Below are positions 21,590 to 33,796 of a DNA stretch of 64,000 nt, piece after piece; position 1 is the stretch's first letter; each line of letters starts with the position of its first letter. The notes beneath the pieces are model-generated. The model saw only the letters and a program-made list of their open reading frames with translations. It was not told the DNA's origin and ran no database searches. The translations under genes were made by a program, and so were the position numbers. The DNA is from Escherichia coli (lineage in GTDB: Bacteria > Pseudomonadota > Gammaproteobacteria > Enterobacterales > Enterobacteriaceae): the NCBI RefSeq assembly GCF_003334305.1, contig NZ_QOWS01000004.1; one strand, 5' to 3'.

Positions 21590-24480
<2,891 letters not shown>

Positions 24481-24488
24481 GTAACCGT

Positions 24489-24568
24489 GCCGGATGCGGC
24501 GTGAACGCCTTATCCGGCCTACATAGTTCGTGCGACATGTAGGCCCGATAAGCGCAGCGCATCGGGCA
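24489..24568. repeat. Pair of inverted REP units (BIME) downstream of ascB
   Basis: gccggatgcggcgtgaacgccttatccggcctaca and tgtaggcccgataagcgcagcgcatcgggca. Confidence 0.85.
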
Positions 24569-24593
24569 ATCTGGGGTTTGGCATCAGTCAAAA

Positions 24594-25013
24594 TCAAAGA
24601 AACCATTCCGGCTTAACGCCAAATCGGGCTGAAAGTGCCTTAATGTGGGATATTGTCAGGGATCGTTGTCCAGACAAAATCTGACTGACCAGGGATTTAG
24701 AGCCGATTTCGTTCTTCAAATCCGCATAGGTCAGATTATGTTGATCAATCAACGTGCGAAGTAACGCCACGCCAACCGGCATTGCCGCAACGGCTTTGTC
24801 GAACTCTGCAAACTTTTCGTTGTTGTTTTCATACTCTGCAATGCGGCTCGCCAGAAAGTCGATAAGTGGATTGGTGTCATCTTCTTCAATCAAATATTCG
24901 ACCAGTTCCAGTGCTTCACGATAATCATCTTCTGAGTCACTGCCTCCCAGAAAGGGGACTGCATTGACCAGTTCTCTTGTTGCTTTAACAGCGCGTGCAG
25001 CATTAGCAGTCAT
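24594..25013 (-). CDS. HigA-family antitoxin-like HTH (Xre/Cro-type) protein, no adjacent toxin gene
   Basis: ORF track 24594..25079 (TTG start); ATG at 25011-25013 gives 140 aa MTANAARAVKATRELVNAVPFLGG...GSKSLVSQILSGQRSLTISHIKALSARFGVKPEWFL; by eye about half the residues match my recollection of E. coli HigA (YgjM). Confidence 0.7.
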   Translation of the reverse strand: MTANAARAVKATRELVNAVPFLGGSDSEDDYREALELVEYLIEEDDTNPLIDFLASRIAEYENNNEKFAEFDKAVAAMPVGVALLRTLIDQHNLTYADLKNEIGSKSLVSQILSGQRSLTISHIKALSARFGVKPEWFL

Positions 25014-25032
25014 TCTTTGTTCTCTCTGTAGT

Positions 25033-25055
25033 AACGTGACGTCTGTCTGCACGTA
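25033..25055. promoter_or_regulatory. Inverted repeat ACGTG-N11-CACGT upstream of the HigA-like gene (candidate autoregulatory operator)
   Basis: aacgtgacgtctgtctgcacgtaa between the ORF B stop and the HigA-like ATG. Confidence 0.35.
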
Positions 25056-25083
25056 ATCCCCCTCATAGCCACTCTGCAAAAAG

Positions 25084-25857
25084 TCAGTTCTGGTTCACCC
25101 CATAAAGCACATCCCCCTTTATCAAGCAACGCTGCGTCTGCGCCAGATCTTCCGTTTGCGGGTCGCGCCCGGCGATGGGTTTGAGGACGAGTTTACGGTT
25201 GGGGGTATAAGTAAAACGCGTGAGCGCGGGATAGCTTAACTTGCCAAACCAGCCGTGAACACGCTGCCATTTGGCGTCTTTTACCTGATACAGACTGGTT
25301 ATCCAGTAACCAGAATTAAACTGCATATCCAGCAATTGCGTGTGACCATTGCCTTGCAAATCCAGCAAATCATCTACGCCAGTTTTGCTTGCGGTGTAGA
25401 ATCCCCTGGGTTCAAAGACACAGGGACGGCCTTCGCGCGTGAACGTCATAAGAATTAAATGTGCATAAGGAGCCAGACCATTACCGGTACTTGGTAACCA
25501 GATAACCAGATCCTGAATGCCGTTACGATCAAGATCGGCGCGATAGAGTTGCCCTTTGCCCGCTATGTTTGCCAGCATACCCACAGGCACAGACCAGGAT
25601 TTACCGGCGCGATCTTTACCGTTCAATTGCCATTCACTATCATCATTTGGCATCTTTTCAAGCGTCACGCCAGCAACGCCCACTTTTCTAAAATGCCAGG
25701 TTTGCTCGGCATCATAAGGCATGGTCAGGAGAGGTTTCAGCGCCCGCTTTTGCGCGTATTCGCTGTCACTCATTGGCAGATATTCGGTAAAGCTGGTGGC
25801 CTGTGCAGGCAGCACTAAGCTCAATAAAAAAGCGCACATCCCTGTTCTGATATTCAT
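25084..25857 (-). CDS. Sec-exported protein of unknown function with two DxDxNG-like (FG-GAP/calcium-loop-like) motifs
   Basis: ORF track 257 aa; signal peptide MNIRTGMCAFLLSLVLPAQA|TS; motifs ADLDRNGIQDLVIW and DDLLDLQGNGHTQLL; ATG 24 nt downstream of hycI stop, same strand. Confidence 0.65.
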   Translation of the reverse strand: MNIRTGMCAFLLSLVLPAQATSFTEYLPMSDSEYAQKRALKPLLTMPYDAEQTWHFRKVGVAGVTLEKMPNDDSEWQLNGKDRAGKSWSVPVGMLANIAGKGQLYRADLDRNGIQDLVIWLPSTGNGLAPYAHLILMTFTREGRPCVFEPRGFYTASKTGVDDLLDLQGNGHTQLLDMQFNSGYWITSLYQVKDAKWQRVHGWFGKLSYPALTRFTYTPNRKLVLKPIAGRDPQTEDLAQTQRCLIKGDVLYGVNQN

Positions 25858-25881
25858 TTCGCTGAATTCCCTGATGGAGAA

Positions 25882-26352
25882 TTATTCTTCTTCCACCGCT
25901 AACTGCGCGAAGCCGCCATTCCCTTCCCAGCCTTCCAGTCGTTGATAAACGGTTTCAACCGCATCTTTAATCGGCTGGGTCATCGGGTAGTAAAAGCCGA
26001 CGATATCCGGCTGGATGCCGAGGAAAATCACTTCGCCAATATCTTCTTTCAACTGGTCGATAAGGTAGTTCAACGGCATGTTATGGGTAGTCATCATAAA
26101 CATCTCGGCGATATCATCCGGGTCGATGATGCGGATCTCGCCGGGGTTTAGCCCCATATCAGTGGCGTCGACAATCAGCAGTCGCGTAGGGCGCAGTTCA
26201 CGGATGGCGACGATGTCGTTTTCCGGTGCACTACCGCCGTCAATCACCACCCAGTTACCTTTCGGCGCGGCGGCGCACTTTTCCGCCAGCAGCGGGCCTG
26301 CGCCATCATCGCCCATCATGCTATTGCCAACACAGAGTAAAACGTCAGTCAC
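25882..26352 (-). CDS. hycI: Hydrogenase 3 large-subunit maturation endopeptidase HycI
   Basis: ORF track 156 aa [25 protein letters not shown]. Confidence 0.95.
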   Translation of the reverse strand: MTDVLLCVGNSMMGDDGAGPLLAEKCAAAPKGNWVVIDGGSAPENDIVAIRELRPTRLLIVDATDMGLNPGEIRIIDPDDIAEMFMMTTHNMPLNYLIDQLKEDIGEVIFLGIQPDIVGFYYPMTQPIKDAVETVYQRLEGWEGNGGFAQLAVEEE

Positions 26353-26755
26353 GCAGTCTCCTCACCATCAAATAGATGGCGTTTTCCTGATGAATATCAT
26401 GCAGCATACTTAGCAGCATTGTACTCCATTCCTGCTGCTGCGAAGTTTGCGCTGCCCGGGCTTTATCGAATGCGTTGGCCAGCATCGGCACATGGTTAAT
26501 GTCGATGACGATCTCACCATATTTCGGCACGCCTTCCATTTTGCGGCGGGCTTCGCTGCCCGCCTCCAGAGTGGCAATCCATGCCAGATATTCATCCCAC
26601 GGGCAGGTGAGCGCCGCTTCCAGGCAATCGATAACCCCAAGGTGGTGACCAATCGCCAGGCTGTAATAGACCACCTGCTGCGCCTCGGCGGGCGTGGCAT
26701 CGTTCTCATCAATAAATTTACGGCTCAGTTGACTGAACACCACCTTTTCACTCAT
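26345..26755 (-). CDS. hycH: Formate hydrogenlyase maturation protein HycH
   Basis: ORF track 136 aa [28 protein letters not shown]; operon position. Confidence 0.93.
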
Positions 26756-27519
26756 CGGATACGCGCCTCTTCTACAACATGATTCAGATGGCTGACAATC
26801 TCGTTCAGACGCGGATCGTTTTCCGCTTCCAGCCAGCGTGCAACCTGTTCTTCGCCCTGCCCTAACTGTGTCAGGAAGTCATCGGCAATCTGACGACCGT
26901 AACGATAACCTGCCAGGCGGCGTGCTTCGCGATCCACTTTCACACGCAGCGGCTGCACCATATCGCCATGCAGGATTTCCGCCGGTTGTTCATCCTGCTC
27001 ACCCGGGCCACGGGCGTGAATTTTCTGCTCCAGCAGGCCGAGCGCCATTGCAAAGCCGTACAGCGTGGCGGCAGGCGTTGGCGGGCAACCAGGGATGTAG
27101 ACATCTACCGGGACGATTTTATCCGTACCGCCCCACACGCAGTAGAGATCGTGGAAGATCCCGCCACTGTTACCGCAGGCACCGTAGGAGATACAGATTT
27201 TCGGGTCCGGCGCGGACTGCCACGCACGCAGCGCAGGGGATCGCATTGCACGGGTGACCGCGCCGGTAAACAGTAAAATATCCGCATGACGCGGTGAAGG
27301 AACGACTTTAATGCCGAAGCGTTCTGCATCAAACAGCGGCGAAAGCGTGGCGAAAATTTCGATTTCGCAGCCGTTGCAGCCGCCGCAGTCCACGCGGTAA
27401 ACGTAGGCAGAACGTTTGATTTTTTTCAGTAACGACGCCTTCATGCTGGCGATGGATTCATCCACCGTCATCGGGACCGGAATGCCGTTGGCGTCACGGG
27501 GGCCTAATAAATTGCTCAT
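26752..27519 (-). CDS. hycG: Hydrogenase 3 small subunit (NuoB-like)
   Basis: ORF track 255 aa; NuoB-type Cys motifs ([12 protein letters not shown]). Confidence 0.95.
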
Positions 27520-28061
27520 CAGATGGCCTCTTTCATATGGCGAGTCAGTTCAATACGGTCGGACGGCACCAGGCATTTCTGGCGCTTACATTCCGGGCAA
27601 GTCTCAAAGCTTTCGCGGTGGTTTTCCGCGCGGCTGTCACCATTGTGCTTAAGCAGCGCAATGGCGTAGTCGATCTCTTTCTGGACGGCGAAAGGACGAT
27701 TGCAGACGCGACAGCTGCACAGCACAAAACGGGACTGTTGCAGGAAATCTTCTTTCTTCCACACCGCCAGTTCGTACTCTTGCGACAGTTTGATCGCTGC
27801 CGTCGGGCAGACTTCTTCGCAGCGTCCACAGAAGATGCAGCGCCCGAGATTAAACTCCCACGCAAGCTCTCCTGTGGCGAGGTCAGTTTCAACCGTTAAG
27901 GCGTTTGACGGGCAGGCATTGACGCAGGCCGCGCAGCCGATGCACTGCTGCGGGTTCTGCTCTGGCTTACCACGGAAGTTTTTATCAACCGCAATCGGCT
28001 CCAGCGGATAAGACGAGGTCGCCGTGCCGGTTTTGATGACTTTTTTGATAAAGGTAAACAT
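27519..28061 (-). CDS. hycF: Formate hydrogenlyase 4Fe-4S subunit (NuoI-like)
   Basis: ORF track 180 aa; two CxxCxxCxxxCP ferredoxin motifs. Confidence 0.95.
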
Positions 28062-28070
28062 GGCGATTCC

Positions 28071-29780
28071 TTATTTCAGCGGCGAGTTTTTACGCTCAAT
28101 GCTGTAACGCTCGAGTTCTTTGTACGGCACCACTTTGCTCTTCTTCTTACGCACATCGACCACGGTCATGCGGTCGGTACAGGAGTAGCAAGGGTCCAGG
28201 CTACCGATAATCAGCGGCGCATCGGAAACGGTGTTACCGCGCAGCATGTAGCGCAGGGTCGGCCAGTTCGCGTAGGTCGCGGCACGGCAGCGCCAGCGGT
28301 ACAGCTTCTGGTTGTCGCCGGTCATGCTCCAGTGGATATCGTCGCCGCGCGGCGCTTCGGCAAAGCCCAGCGCGAAACGGTGCGGAATGTAGGTAAAGCC
28401 TTCCACCATCAGCGGACCGCCCGGCAGGTTATCCAGACCGTAGTCGATCATGTTCAGCGCGGTATAAACTTCGTTGATACGCACTTTCAGACGGGAAATA
28501 ACGTCGCAGCCCTGCTCGCTGTGGACTTCCATTGGCAGCAGGCCATAACCGACAAACGGGTGATCGGCGCGAGTATCGCGGGCGTGACCGCTGGCGCGAA
28601 CCATCGGGCCAACGTTACTGAAATCGCGGGCGATTTCCGGGTCCAGACGACCAATGCCGACGGTGCGCTGTTCCATGTTCGGCGTACTCAGCAGCACATC
28701 CACCAGCTCCTGCACTTCACGACGCATTTGTTGCGCCAGCTGGCGGGTCTGGATCATGTCATCTTTCAGCAGATCGCGACGAATCCCGCCGATCAGGTTC
28801 AGGCCGTAGGTTTTACGCGCACCGGTAAGGATCTCTGCCATTTTCATGGAGGTTTCACGCACGCGGAAGAACTGCATAAAGCCGGAGTCGAAGCCAGTAA
28901 AGTGACAGGCCAGGCCGAGGTTGAGCAGATGCGAGTGCAGGCGTTCCACCTCCAGCAGAATGGCGCGGATCATCTGCGCACGTTCTGGCACCTGAATACC
29001 CATCGCGTTTTCCACCGACGTGGTGTAGGCGGTGCTGTGAGCAAAGCCGCAGATGCCGCACACACGGTCAGAGAGGAAGGTCACTTCGTTGTACCCCATA
29101 CGGGTTTCCGCCAGTTTTTCCATGCCGCGATGGACGTAGAACAGGCGGTAGTCGGCGTCGATAATATTTTCGCCATCGACGAACAGACGGAAGTGACCCG
29201 GTTCGTCGGAAGTGACGTGCAACGGACCAATCGGCACGACGTTGTTTTTCTTGTCACCCAGTTCATTGATGAACTCGTAGGTTTCAGCATCGGTGGTCGG
29301 CGCCGGACGCTGACGATAATCCATGCTGTCTTTACGCAGCGGATAAAGTTCATCCGGCCAGTCATCCGGCAGCACCAGACGACGTTCATCCGGCAGACCA
29401 ACCGGAATCAAACCGTACATATCGCGCACTTCGCGCTCGCCCCACACAGCCGCCGGAACGCGCGGCGTCACGGACGGATACTCCGGTTTGTTGGCGTCAA
29501 CTTCGACGCGAACCGTTACCCAACACTTAGTGCCCTTCTCCATCGACAGCACGTAATAAACGGCGTAATGACCATTCAGTTTGCGTTCGTCGTTACCAAA
29601 CAGCACCGACAGCCAGCCACCCTGTTTGTAGTAAAGAAACTCCACCACTTCCGGCAGGTAGTTCACCTTTACGGTGACAGTCAGCTGATCTTTGGTCTGC
29701 CAGGCGTGGTCCAGCACGACGCCCGGAAATGCCTCATTCAGCGCGGCGAGATAATGTTGACCTAATTTTTCTTCAGACAT
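28071..29780 (-). CDS. hycE: Hydrogenase 3 [NiFe] large subunit (NuoC/D fusion-like)
   Basis: ORF track 28071..29801; start at MSEEKLGQHYLAALNEAFPG, 569 aa; RVCGICGFAH and C-terminal DPCYSC Ni-binding motifs. Confidence 0.95.
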   Translation of the reverse strand: MSEEKLGQHYLAALNEAFPGVVLDHAWQTKDQLTVTVKVNYLPEVVEFLYYKQGGWLSVLFGNDERKLNGHYAVYYVLSMEKGTKCWVTVRVEVDANKPEYPSVTPRVPAAVWGEREVRDMYGLIPVGLPDERRLVLPDDWPDELYPLRKDSMDYRQRPAPTTDAETYEFINELGDKKNNVVPIGPLHVTSDEPGHFRLFVDGENIIDADYRLFYVHRGMEKLAETRMGYNEVTFLSDRVCGICGFAHSTAYTTSVENAMGIQVPERAQMIRAILLEVERLHSHLLNLGLACHFTGFDSGFMQFFRVRETSMKMAEILTGARKTYGLNLIGGIRRDLLKDDMIQTRQLAQQMRREVQELVDVLLSTPNMEQRTVGIGRLDPEIARDFSNVGPMVRASGHARDTRADHPFVGYGLLPMEVHSEQGCDVISRLKVRINEVYTALNMIDYGLDNLPGGPLMVEGFTYIPHRFALGFAEAPRGDDIHWSMTGDNQKLYRWRCRAATYANWPTLRYMLRGNTVSDAPLIIGSLDPCYSCTDRMTVVDVRKKKSKVVPYKELERYSIERKNSPLK

Positions 29781-29797
29781 GCTCAAACTCTCTTTAA

Positions 29798-30721
29798 TCA
29801 CGCCGCCAGCAAGGAGACGAACGCTAAAAATGCAAAGCCAAACCCAGCCCAGGTAATGCGCGGAGTAATATCAAGACGCAGACGGGCCATGCTGTTTTCG
29901 AACAGCGCGATAACCAGGACGCCGACCACCAGTTTGACGATGGCAATCACCAGCGCCAGCAGCAGTCCACCGGCGGTGAAGGTTTCCATTTGTCCCCACG
30001 GAATAAACACCCCGACGAACATCTGCAACACCACCAGCTGTTTCAGGCTGATACCCCATTTCATGACGCCAAAGCCGCTACCGCTGTATTCGGAGAGCGG
30101 ACCTTCCTGCAACTCCTGCTCGGCTTCCGCCAGGTCGAACGGCAGTTTGCCCATTTCGATAAAAGTGGCGAACGCACAGGCACAAAGCGCCAGCACCAGC
30201 GGGATGCTCTGGCTCAGCGGCCAGTGATAAACGGTGTCGGTGATGTTGCTGATGTTGGTGGAACCGGCAACCTGTGCGGCAACCCACAGACCAAGCAGCA
30301 GCATCGGTTCGACCAGCACGCCAAGCATCGCTTCACGGCTCGCGCCGATAGCAGTAAACGGGCTACCGGTATCCAGACCGGAAATGGCAAAGAAGAAACG
30401 CGCGATGGCAAAGAGATACAGTAAGGTGATCAAATCGCCCAGTTGCGGCAGCGGAGAACCGACGGTCACCACCGGCAGCGCAGTAGCGATAGTCAGCATG
30501 ACGCCCACCATCACATACGGCGTCAGGCGGAACACCCAGCCGGAGGCATCCGGGCCAACGCTCTGGCGGCCCAGCAGTTTGATAATGTCACGATACTCCT
30601 GCAACACACCCGGCCCACGACGGTTATGTAAGCGGGCTCGCGCCACGCGGGTAATACCGGAGAGCAGCGGCGCAACGGCAAATAGCACCAGCGCCTGAAT
30701 TAACGGATATAAAACACTCAT
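29798..30721 (-). CDS. hycD: Formate hydrogenlyase membrane subunit (NuoH-like)
   Basis: ORF track 307 aa, polytopic membrane protein. Confidence 0.95.
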   Translation of the reverse strand: MSVLYPLIQALVLFAVAPLLSGITRVARARLHNRRGPGVLQEYRDIIKLLGRQSVGPDASGWVFRLTPYVMVGVMLTIATALPVVTVGSPLPQLGDLITLLYLFAIARFFFAISGLDTGSPFTAIGASREAMLGVLVEPMLLLGLWVAAQVAGSTNISNITDTVYHWPLSQSIPLVLALCACAFATFIEMGKLPFDLAEAEQELQEGPLSEYSGSGFGVMKWGISLKQLVVLQMFVGVFIPWGQMETFTAGGLLLALVIAIVKLVVGVLVIALFENSMARLRLDITPRITWAGFGFAFLAFVSLLAA

Positions 30722-30723
30722 TC

Positions 30724-32550
30724 TCAGGCTCCTCGTGAAACAATAATCACCACCAGCACCGCCAGTTCAACCAGCGCCATCCGGCGGAACAGCAACGCAC
30801 TCCCCTCGCACTGCCAGCCCGGCACCAGAGACACCGGATTCAGCCATTTGCGTAGTTTCAGCACCGGCGCAAACGCCTGTTTCACCGGCATGGCAAAACC
30901 GTGAGCGGTAATCACCATTGATTTTTCGTGGTCGTAGCCGCACACCCAGGCCGAGCCGCGGGAACGCGACGGCAAACGATCGCCTTTGCAAATCGCCATA
31001 ATGATGAATGGCAGCAGCGGGCAGGCAATCAGCAGCAATGTGATCATGGGTTGAGAAACGGTGGTGTTAGCAGGCTCCAGAGGCAGAGGTACAGCAGCAG
31101 AGAGCATCGGCAGCAGCCACGGCGCAGCAACACCGCCAATTACGCAGCAAATCGCCAGTGCCACTACGCTTACGCTCATCAGGAGCGGCGCACAGGTGGC
31201 GTTTTCGGCTTCTTTGGTACGCGGCGCGCCGAGGAACGTGACGCCATAGACTTTCGCCATACACATCACCGCCAGCGCACCGGTAATTGCCAGACCCACA
31301 GCGAGCAGCGGCCCCAGCAGACGGGCAACAAACGCGCCACTATTGCTCAGTTTGAAGAAGGATTGATAGATAACCCATTCCCCGGCAAACCCGTTCAGCG
31401 GCGGCAGCGCAGCCATTGCCATTAACCCGACTAACATGGCGATGGAGATAACCGGCATTTTCTTGCCAATACCACCGAGTTTCTCGATATCGCGATGACC
31501 GGTACGGAACCAGACGCTCCCCGCCCCGAGGAACAGTACGCTTTTGAACAGGCTATGGTTAAGCAGATGGTACAGACCACCGACCAGGCCAAGAGCAATC
31601 AGCGCCGGTTGTTCGAACGCGATACCCGTTACGCCAGCGCCCAGCCCCAGCAGGATAATGCCGATATTTTCCAGGGTGTGGTAAGCCAGCAGGCGCTGGA
31701 TGTTGTGTTCCATCAACGCATACAGACCACCGACGAACGCGGTGATCATGCCGAGCACCAGCAGCGCGATCCCCCACCACAGCGGCGCGTTACCACCCAG
31801 CAGCGACAGGGTTAAAATGCCCAGCAGGCCAATTTTCATGACTACCGTAGAAAACAACGCGGCAGCTGGCGCAGAGGCGTTAGCATGTGCCTGCGGCACC
31901 CAGCCGTGCAGCGGAATAATCCCGGCCAGCAGGCCAAAGCCAATCACACCGAGCAGCCAGATATCGGAACCGAGCGGCAGCTGTTGCATACGCATATCCA
32001 GCAGGCGCAGATCCAGCGTGCCATAACGCTGCCACAGCAGCCAGCAAGCAATCGCCAGCAGCAGAGTGCCAAGACGCCCCAGCGCAAACCACAGTTTGCC
32101 CTCTTTGCTGTTGCTGGTAAGGAACACCGCACACAAGGCCATGACTTCAGCCATTACCACGAACATGCCGAGGTTGCTGGCGATGACGGCGCAGACGGCG
32201 GCAGCCATCAACATATTGATCTGCAAGCCGTTGCACTTCACCTGCGCGTGGCGATGCCAGTCAATGTTGTAGAGGCTGACAAACAGACCGCACAGACCGA
32301 GCGTAATCAGCCAAATCGCGTTAAGCGGAGAGATTTGCACATCGTAGCTTACCAGCGACAGCGCACCGCTCACGCCAACCGCGCCAGTCAGTACAGTGAA
32401 GCCCGCGGCTGCCGTATACAGACTACCAACCGCGCCGCCAATTCCGGCTATCCAGCCACTTAGCGTCTTTTGAAAAGAAAAGAGAAATGCCAGAACAGCG
32501 GCGGCGACAAACCATGCCACGCCGCTATTGATCAGGGAAATTGCGCTCAT
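30724..32550 (-). CDS. hycC: Formate hydrogenlyase membrane subunit (NuoL/antiporter-like)
   Basis: ORF track 608 aa, polytopic membrane protein. Confidence 0.95.
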   Translation of the reverse strand: MSAISLINSGVAWFVAAAVLAFLFSFQKTLSGWIAGIGGAVGSLYTAAAGFTVLTGAVGVSGALSLVSYDVQISPLNAIWLITLGLCGLFVSLYNIDWHRHAQVKCNGLQINMLMAAAVCAVIASNLGMFVVMAEVMALCAVFLTSNSKEGKLWFALGRLGTLLLAIACWLLWQRYGTLDLRLLDMRMQQLPLGSDIWLLGVIGFGLLAGIIPLHGWVPQAHANASAPAAALFSTVVMKIGLLGILTLSLLGGNAPLWWGIALLVLGMITAFVGGLYALMEHNIQRLLAYHTLENIGIILLGLGAGVTGIAFEQPALIALGLVGGLYHLLNHSLFKSVLFLGAGSVWFRTGHRDIEKLGGIGKKMPVISIAMLVGLMAMAALPPLNGFAGEWVIYQSFFKLSNSGAFVARLLGPLLAVGLAITGALAVMCMAKVYGVTFLGAPRTKEAENATCAPLLMSVSVVALAICCVIGGVAAPWLLPMLSAAVPLPLEPANTTVSQPMITLLLIACPLLPFIIMAICKGDRLPSRSRGSAWVCGYDHEKSMVITAHGFAMPVKQAFAPVLKLRKWLNPVSLVPGWQCEGSALLFRRMALVELAVLVVIIVSRGA

Positions 32551-33158
32551 TTAGCCTCTCCACTTTGAGCCTGCTGAAACAAGGTGAGATCGCCAAAGTC
32601 CGTGTTAAAGGTCAGCTCACGCTTACGTTTGCTGACGCGGGCGATATCGGTGTTATCCACCAGATGCAGGGCTTTAGTCGGGCACATCCGCACGCAGGCC
32701 GGACCTTGTTCATCAAAACTGCAAAGGTCACATTTGACGGCGATCGCGCGAATACCCGGCACCCAGTCAAGCAGCGTACTGATACGCGCCGGAGCAGGCG
32801 GTGCCGGTGGCGCTTTCGGGGTATTGGCATTTGCAGGAATATCCAGCGGACGGCTGCCGGAAAATTCAATTGCGCCAAACGGGCAGGCGATGCCGCACAG
32901 CTTGCAGCTTACGCACAGGCTTTCATTCAACTGCACGGCCCCATCAACGCGGGTGATGGCGTTAACCGGGCAGACCACCGCGCAGGGTGCATCTTCACAG
33001 TGGTGACAGAGCTGCGGCGCAGATTCTTTTTCATTTAGCATCACTCTCAGGCGCGGCATTGATTGCAGGCCGTGCTGGCGATGCGTCTCTGAACAGGCGG
33101 CCTCACAAGTGTGGCAGCCGATACAGAGCGTGGAGTCAGCAATTACAAAACGATTCAC
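32547..33158 (-). CDS. hycB: Formate hydrogenlyase 4Fe-4S ferredoxin subunit
   Basis: ORF track 203 aa; four Cys clusters. Confidence 0.95.
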   Translation of the reverse strand: MNRFVIADSTLCIGCHTCEAACSETHRQHGLQSMPRLRVMLNEKESAPQLCHHCEDAPCAVVCPVNAITRVDGAVQLNESLCVSCKLCGIACPFGAIEFSGSRPLDIPANANTPKAPPAPPAPARISTLLDWVPGIRAIAVKCDLCSFDEQGPACVRMCPTKALHLVDNTDIARVSKRKRELTFNTDFGDLTLFQQAQSGEAK

Positions 33159-33282
33159 CAGGCATTCCTCAGGTGATTGTCATTTTTGACGAAAACATGC
33201 CGATGAAATGTCATTTTCGACACTCATCGACACGCCCATCCCCAAACAGGCGTAACGCCTGCAAAACGGGCAAAGCCTCAGC

Positions 33283-33744
33283 TCATGCTGCCGGGCTTTG
33301 TCCCTTTACCAGTTGGCTTAAATTCACCGGCACATTGTTTTCAATGGCGGTGTATAAGCTGTCGTAAACGCCAGCGATTTTTTCGAGATAGTGTTCCAGA
33401 ACCTGTTCGCGATCGCGGATGTTGACCTTGCCATCAATCATGCCGTCAATGCTCAGTTGCGCCTGCGCAATCCGCTGTTTGTCTTCGCCATCTTTTGTTT
33501 CGACGTAATACTCGATGGTGTGGCTGTTAAAGCCATCCGCCAGGGTGACGTAAATACGAAAATGTTCAAAAAGGACGAAACAGAGTTCTTTGTCCGGCGC
33601 GCAGCTCATGGCGTGATGCAGGCGCGCTTTCGATAACGTGATCCCCTGAACCAGCGAATTGCAGTAGATGTGCCACTGGTCCTGTAGGCGACGATGCCGC
33701 TGTGCGATGTAATCGGCTTTCTCGCTTATTTCCCAAATAGTCAT
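33283..33744 (-). CDS. hycA: Formate hydrogenlyase regulatory protein HycA (antagonist of FhlA)
   Basis: ORF track 153 aa MTIWEISEKADYIAQRHRRLQDQWHIYCNS; first gene of hyc operon. Confidence 0.93.
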   Translation of the reverse strand: MTIWEISEKADYIAQRHRRLQDQWHIYCNSLVQGITLSKARLHHAMSCAPDKELCFVLFEHFRIYVTLADGFNSHTIEYYVETKDGEDKQRIAQAQLSIDGMIDGKVNIRDREQVLEHYLEKIAGVYDSLYTAIENNVPVNLSQLVKGQSPAA

Positions 33745-33781: not shown

Positions 33782-33796
33782 GCATTTTTTGTGCCA
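33782..33796 (-). promoter_or_regulatory. Sigma54 (-24/-12) promoter of the hyc operon
   Basis: Minus strand reads TGGCACaaaaaATGCt upstream of hycA. Confidence 0.8.

Follow-up and report, generated by a model that had tools for sequence, protein, structure and literature searches.

The hyc operon, the textbook nine-gene unit of formate hydrogenlyase, was defined in Escherichia coli K-12. It is under the control of FhlA and sigma54, and the K-12 formate hydrogenlyase is fully active. Same-strand gene pairs of E. coli that are less than ~30 nt apart overwhelmingly belong to one operon. In the literature on the hycI/ascB intergenic region, on STM2844 and on the end of the hyc operon we found nothing on the gene described here, which we call ORF257, and no transcript data.

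The described proteins that come closest in fold to the product of this gene may be periplasmic inhibitors of peptidoglycan hydrolases. Of these, PliI, X-Tfi and Tsi1 have a propeller-like fold in common, and a conserved Ca2+ loop is present in X-Tfi (PMC10933484).

We analyzed a window (the whole stretch of E. coli DNA studied, 64 kb in length) in which hycI is followed by ORF257 and by an orphan higA-like gene. We consider that ORF257 is an ancestral enterobacterial gene kept directly behind hycI, and that in Escherichia it is a distal passenger cistron of hyc. We put the probability of this at roughly 0.6.

The hyc operon and its junction with ORF257

The open reading frame list places the hyc operon on the minus strand, a detail that the first-pass annotation had left out. 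The nine known cistrons for formate hydrogenlyase, hycA to hycI, extend over positions 25882..33744 (minus strand), as indicated by the open reading frame lists and by the RefSeq annotation of identical and near-identical loci. Within the lists, hycA occupies 33283..33744 and hycI 25882..26352 (both minus strand). A pattern search identified a candidate sigma54 (-24/-12) promoter, TGGCACAAAAAATGC, at 33782..33796 (minus strand). Matches to this pattern are no more numerous across the whole window than expected by chance, and this one was assigned as the putative hyc promoter because it lies just upstream of hycA and the operon is known to be under FhlA/sigma54 control.

ORF257 (25084..25857, minus strand) is predicted, based on its homologues, dN/dS values and an AlphaFold2 model, to encode an exported FG-GAP/VCBS-like all-beta protein of 257 aa from an uncharacterised family. 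The first-pass annotation had located its start close behind hycI and had seen a purine tract but no hairpin or U-run in between. Re-reading of the sequence showed that its coordinates and its description of the junction are correct. The hycI stop codon (TAA, 25882-25884) and the ORF257 start codon (ATG, 25855-25857) are on the same (minus) strand and are separated by a gap of 24 nt (25858..25881, minus strand) that reads TTCTCCATCAGGGAATTCAGCGAA, is unstructured, and has a length that is invariant in Escherichia. The AGGGA Shine-Dalgarno-like tract (25868..25872, minus strand) is 10 nt before the ATG. Terminator prediction by consensus scan was negative for the minus strand between hycI and ORF257 (25858-25881). 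Neither a hairpin nor a U-run is present, and the 161 nt of junction RNA fold no better than shuffled sequences (z +0.71).

Pairing of the AGGGA tract with the 16S anti-Shine-Dalgarno sequence is predicted to yield -5.1 kcal/mol, and the equivalent tract in three other alleles yields -5.7 to -6.1 kcal/mol. Thus, the signal at the first start codon is of moderate strength (-5.1 to -6.1 kcal/mol across alleles) and is conserved. Most Escherichia alleles have TTG rather than ATG at this position, in which case PGAP calls an ATG 18 nt further on. This second ATG, which would have a 42-nt spacer, is the less likely start given its weaker Shine-Dalgarno pairing (-1.9 to -4.3 kcal/mol) and the alignment of the K/N-I-R-T-G extension with the N-termini of the Salmonella and Klebsiella proteins. 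From the first ATG, the initial 20 codons (25798..25857, minus strand) encode MNIRTGMCAFLLSLVLPAQA, which is followed by TSF and reads, in the translation, as a Sec signal peptide with cleavage after AQA. Homologues have equivalent N-termini. The product is not predicted to be a lipoprotein, as there is no lipobox before a Cys.

We identified no credible sigma70 promoter within 900 nt upstream of ORF257 using a consensus scan, a method that can miss weak or non-sigma70 promoters. Poor matches were all that the scan returned between hycH and ORF257, the best being 8-9/12 with 15- or 19-nt spacers. One weak match, TTCGCG-19-AATAAT, overlaps the hycI stop codon in the window allele, and other alleles read GAGTAG in place of AATAAT.

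Selection on ORF257 and its protein family

We judge ORF257 to be a real gene and not a chance reading frame, because homologues occur in several genera and the frame is under purifying selection. Values of dN/dS between E. coli alleles are 0.17-0.53 (0.17-0.27 in distant comparisons and 0.53 in the closest). For hycI and hycG most comparisons give 0.01-0.06, and hycH reaches 0.27. Based on these values, we regard selection on ORF257 as purifying but relaxed. Within E. coli, ORF257 alleles have 84.8% to 100% nucleotide identity. Divergence rises steeply toward the 3' end of the operon (window positions 25084-26352 compared with L002, L007 and L018): relative to strain PAR, dS is 0.05 for hycH, 0.31 for hycI and 0.54 for ORF257. 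This pattern suggests old allelic lineages or recombination at a variable operon end.

Full-length homologues are found in E. albertii (83% identity), Salmonella enterica (~71%), and Klebsiella spallanzanii and Phytobacter (~63%), and the E. coli 55989 protein B7LED0 is 91% identical to ORF257. Zoogloeaceae, Thiolinea and many Acidobacteria have more distant homologues. When 1.84 billion cluster representatives were searched with a profile, 488 family members were recovered at E<=1e-3. Most are 330-360 aa in length and have a C-terminal domain of ~100 aa that is absent from the enterobacterial proteins. In the non-enteric proteins this domain is conserved and ends in a CSPExxWA motif; it is wholly missing from those of Escherichia, Salmonella and Klebsiella. 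An AlphaFold database entry from Salmonella enterica (A0A633HV03, 343 aa), named "Hydrogenase 3 maturation protease", matches the ORF257 model over 188 columns. It appears to be a HycI-ORF257 fusion call, for which loss of a stop codon is one possible cause and an artefact of assembly or annotation another.

Ancestry and repeated loss of ORF257

ORF257 had been described in the first-pass annotation as an islet. This does not hold: the gene has a GC content of 50.3%, which is ordinary for E. coli and not foreign, K-12 carries a deletion scar of it, and outgroups carry it at the same place. Because of the scar and the outgroup genes, we take its presence to be ancestral and its absence to be derived.

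The hycI-ascB spacer of the K-12 type is 161 bp in length, including the hycI stop codon (L003 1582-1742). It contains, in order, the first 19 nt of the hycI-ORF257 spacer, ORF257 codons 2-7 (ATCAGGACAGGGATGT), the final 26 nt of ORF257 (24/26 identical), the sequence found downstream of higA, and the REP element. The start codon was removed from this scar by a further 15-nt deletion. Comparison of the K-12-type spacer with the window identified a 9-bp direct repeat, GGGATGTGC, with a 5' copy at 25834..25842 and a 3' copy at 25107..25115 (both minus strand). These repeats likely mark the deletion junction, with genomes of the K-12 type having lost the ORF between the two copies.

At least 80% of ORF257 is present in 1463 of 5426 complete E. 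coli genomes (27%), and the gene is partial in up to 837 more (up to 15%). The ST131 frame breaks off after codon 61, where it is joined to sequence from immediately upstream of higA; the E. albertii type strain has a shifted frame; and truncated forms are numerous in Salmonella. ORF257 is dispensable and has been lost repeatedly. The K-12 form of hyc is thus a deletion derivative, and an intact extra gene behind hycI is found in roughly one in four E. coli, in some Salmonella and in other enterics.

Where the gene is retained, it is on the same strand behind hycI in four Escherichia species or clades, Salmonella, Phytobacter and Klebsiella spallanzanii, with spacers of 24 to 766 nt. Each of the nine Escherichia alleles compared has a spacer of exactly 24 nt, although the ORF differs by up to 15% and the spacer sequence by ~25%; this length holds in E. 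albertii, E. whittamii and a cryptic Escherichia clade as well as in E. coli. In Salmonella, where hydN-hypF come next on the same strand, the gene has its annotated GTG start 26 nt after hycI, and another GTG, 59 nt beyond the hycI stop codon, gives a better alignment with other N-termini. A species-level scan found no ORF257 homologue in the Salmonella reference genome (the species representative), from which we conclude that the gene is in some serovars only. The spacer of Phytobacter is 80 nt in length and has a REP-like hairpin, and in Klebsiella spallanzanii 766 nt and an antisense symE gene separate hycI from the ORF. Because of these two cases, tight coupling to hycI is neither universal nor obligatory.

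E. coli strain PAR (L018) and ST131 (L019) lack the asc operon at this site and have the order hycI-ORF257-(higB)-higA, one opposite-strand gene, hydN-hypF, as in Salmonella. Because this gene order matches that of Salmonella, the ascGFB block, rather than ORF257, looks like the inserted element. In Klebsiella spallanzanii, two symE-like toxin genes and a parDE pair surround the ORF (L005 3422-3661, 4877-5814). Taken with the higBA genes of E. coli, this arrangement shows that toxin-antitoxin modules have repeatedly landed at the end of hyc.

An orphan higA and the probable end of the transcript

Downstream of ORF257 in the window is a 70-nt stretch that can be read by comparison with other strains. 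In L001 and like strains, the gene order is ORF257-higB-higA, and a good higBA promoter (TTGTGA-17-TATAGT) is located between ORF257 and higB. In the window, this promoter and nearly all of higB are deleted. The remaining ORF257-higA spacer (25014..25083, minus strand) is the scar of that deletion; it has no terminator and is unstructured (RNA fold z +2.57). It is followed by an orphan gene for a higA-like HTH antitoxin (24594..25013, minus strand; 139 aa from the ATG) that has no promoter of its own. ST131 has a different deletion, from ORF257 codon 61 to near the end of higB. Thus two independent deletions removed higB and its promoter. The orphan higA genes of the window and ST131 differ at 14 nucleotides and encode the same protein. 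A full-length higA is present in 2509 of the 5426 complete E. coli genomes and a truncated one in none, and a full-length higB is present in only 1092. The retention of a promoter-less higA directly behind ORF257 is suggestive, as upstream transcription that runs on into higA would permit it.

Between higA and the convergent ascB gene is a REP/BIME palindrome (24475..24570) with a predicted fold of -49.4 kcal/mol (z -2.87). On the minus strand, no strong RNA structure comes between hycI and this palindrome. The consensus scan of this strand from hycI to the REP element gave one weak terminator-like site, inside the end of higA. The palindrome has a sub-threshold match to the REP-derived Rfam family naRNA4, and such elements occur in dozens of copies per genome. 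It is likely the 3' end of the transcript, and higA is probably an eleventh cistron in the window strain. One sequence, NZ_CP116176, is 100% identical to window positions 24400-26000, and an IS621 is annotated within the matched region.

Predicted structure and possible role of the ORF257 protein

AlphaFold2, run with an alignment of 82 sequences, predicts that the ORF257 protein is all-beta after an N-terminal helix of lower confidence (pLDDT 92.7, pTM 0.88). In the family alignment, D108, D110, G113 and D116 are nearly invariant and form a DxDxNGxxD loop. ORF257 itself has no match in Pfam (even at E<=10), NCBIfam or PADLOC. FG-GAP_3 is matched weakly by some family members (4/82 at E<=1e-3 and 29/82 at E<=0.1), and in a comparison of the family profile with PDB sequences the Ca2+ loop of the integrin FG-GAP repeat was the sole region touched (E ~0.04). 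Relatives in the AlphaFold database are named "Periplasmic or exported protein" or "VCBS repeat-containing protein". A Foldseek search of the model against the PDB gave no significant match. For the PliI/X-Tfi-type inhibitor family of Pfam (PF16743), ORF257 has no match and one of the 82 members matches at E 0.027. By these matches, ORF257 could not be assigned to either the FG-GAP/VCBS or the PliI/X-Tfi families.

With low confidence, the predicted fold appears to most resemble those of the periplasmic inhibitors of peptidoglycan hydrolases. By analogy with these proteins, binding or inhibition of an exogenous envelope-active protein would be the most likely role, again a low-confidence assignment. 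No effector-like gene was identified beside ORF257 in the window. A more elaborate scenario is that the ancestral hyc operon had a tenth gene for a PliI/X-Tfi-like periplasmic inhibitor or immunity protein, made specifically during anaerobic, formate-rich fermentation, and that the same read-through keeps the orphan HigA expressed. We consider this quite improbable. If true, it would link envelope defence against lytic enzymes to the gut-like state.

Expression of ORF257 and its relationship to hydrogenase

The first-pass annotation proposed, from position, that ORF257 is a tenth cistron of the hyc operon. This stands as far as the arrangement of the genes is concerned, given the shared strand, the 24-nt gap, the lack of a terminator and the conserved adjacency. 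It does not extend to ORF257 being part of the enzyme, as no functional link was found. We favor co-transcription from the hyc promoter because the genes are on the same strand with a 24-nt spacer, there is neither a terminator nor a credible sigma70 promoter, and the Shine-Dalgarno tract, spacer and gene order are conserved. Read-through from the FhlA/sigma54 hyc promoter would be the best-supported route of expression for ORF257, and a tenth cistron expressed in this way is, on the genomic evidence, the most likely arrangement, with odds somewhat better than even.

In such an arrangement, RNA polymerase would start at the FhlA- and formate-dependent sigma54 promoter upstream of hycA and, in the absence of a terminator after hycI, would cross the 24-nt spacer into ORF257. 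Translation would start at the ATG via the AGGGA tract, or by re-initiation after the hycI stop codon, and the signal peptide would direct the product to the periplasm by the Sec route. In the window strain, transcription most likely goes on through the promoter-less orphan higA and would end at the REP/BIME element before ascB.

Alternatively, ORF257 could be an independent gene, with a weak or unconventional promoter of its own within the spacer or toward the 3' end of hycI. Its location would then reflect inherited synteny only, and its expression would not depend on FhlA or formate. The Klebsiella spallanzanii arrangement, where the distance and the antisense symE make tight coupling impossible, is consistent with this, as are the stand-alone homologues elsewhere, which have no conserved neighbours, and the weak promoter-like sequence at the hycI stop codon of the window allele. 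However, the promoter-like matches all have non-optimal spacers as well as low scores, the nearest is destroyed in other alleles, and the length of the 24-nt spacer does not vary across Escherichia. Moreover, read-through from hyc would be unblocked even if an internal promoter existed. Thus we consider an independent gene unlikely. Still less probable is that ORF257 is a relic in decay whose expression is no longer useful, the arrangement being without present function and headed for the K-12 state. Only a minority of complete E. coli genomes have the gene intact, and others have it truncated. It is frameshifted in the E. albertii type strain, truncated forms are many in Salmonella, the C-terminal domain seen in most of the family is missing from the enterobacterial proteins, and dN/dS is ten-fold above that of the hyc genes, reaching 0.53 in the closest comparison. 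Yet at longer distances dN/dS is well below 1, full-length frames persist in four genera that diverged long ago, and the signal peptide, the Shine-Dalgarno tract and the invariant core residues have all been kept.

A direct connection to the enzyme is the most remote of the explanations considered. On this view ORF257 would assist [NiFe]-hydrogenase or formate hydrogenlyase as a genuine accessory factor, for example as a partner of the membrane arm in the periplasm, and K-12 would have lost it. In Enterobacteriaceae the gene is always behind hycI, and in Salmonella it is between two units of the formate regulon, hyc and hydN-hypF. In Thiolinea disciformis DSM 14473 a homologue (35% identical) is on the same strand 95 nt downstream of hypD-hypE (L017 679-3909). 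But this is one case in ~50 non-enteric loci: a tblastn search with all Hyc and Hyp proteins of the window against eight non-enteric loci found hyc or hyp genes near the homologue in Thiolinea only, and 42 metagenome loci (304 kb) had none, giving only generic similarity to sigma54 activators. Clustering of the genes within 3.5 kb of the homologues identified no conserved neighbour other than in near-identical contigs, and the contexts seen elsewhere include MenF, FruA, Ugd, EmrA, Map and response regulators. The adjacency in Thiolinea is probably a coincidence, and a family-wide association with hydrogenase was rejected, as the scans gave no further cases. In addition, K-12 and most E. coli are without the gene, yet the K-12 hydrogenlyase has full activity, and ORF257 evolves rapidly and is frequently lost. 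The family is a stand-alone gene elsewhere, and its association with hyc is a lineage-specific positional inheritance. We conclude that ORF257 is a passenger and not a subunit of hydrogenlyase.

If co-transcription of ORF257 with hyc is correct, an uncharacterised family of periplasmic proteins would join the formate regulon, in many strains along with an orphan antitoxin, and hyc would offer a clear case of an operon that repeatedly loses a terminal gene through direct repeats. Nothing points to a different mode of action of formate hydrogenlyase itself. In practical terms little would follow: the operon annotation would change in strains other than K-12, and the exported protein would be a candidate for functional work.

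Comparison with known systems

ORF257 shares acidic loops of the DxDxDG type with the FG-GAP/VCBS repeat proteins (PF13517, PF01839), but it has only two such loops and no seven-bladed propeller. The closest known folds may be those of PliI-Ah (3od9), X-Tfi XAC2610 (4qtq) and the related Tsi1 fold group.

Regarding higBA type II toxin-antitoxin modules, L001 and like strains have the module behind ORF257 with its own promoter. The window differs in that higB and the promoter are gone and the orphan higA directly follows ORF257.

Compared with hycABCDEFGHI of the FhlA/sigma54 formate regulon in K-12, the window has the same nine genes in the same order, with the same candidate sigma54 promoter. 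The extra product encoded in the window is, by prediction, exported and without a link to hydrogenase. ORF257 occupies the place where the K-12 transcript runs on toward the REP element: in K-12 this interval is the 161-bp spacer with the scar of the deleted ORF, whereas in the window it holds one or two extra cistrons, ORF257 and higA, before the REP element.
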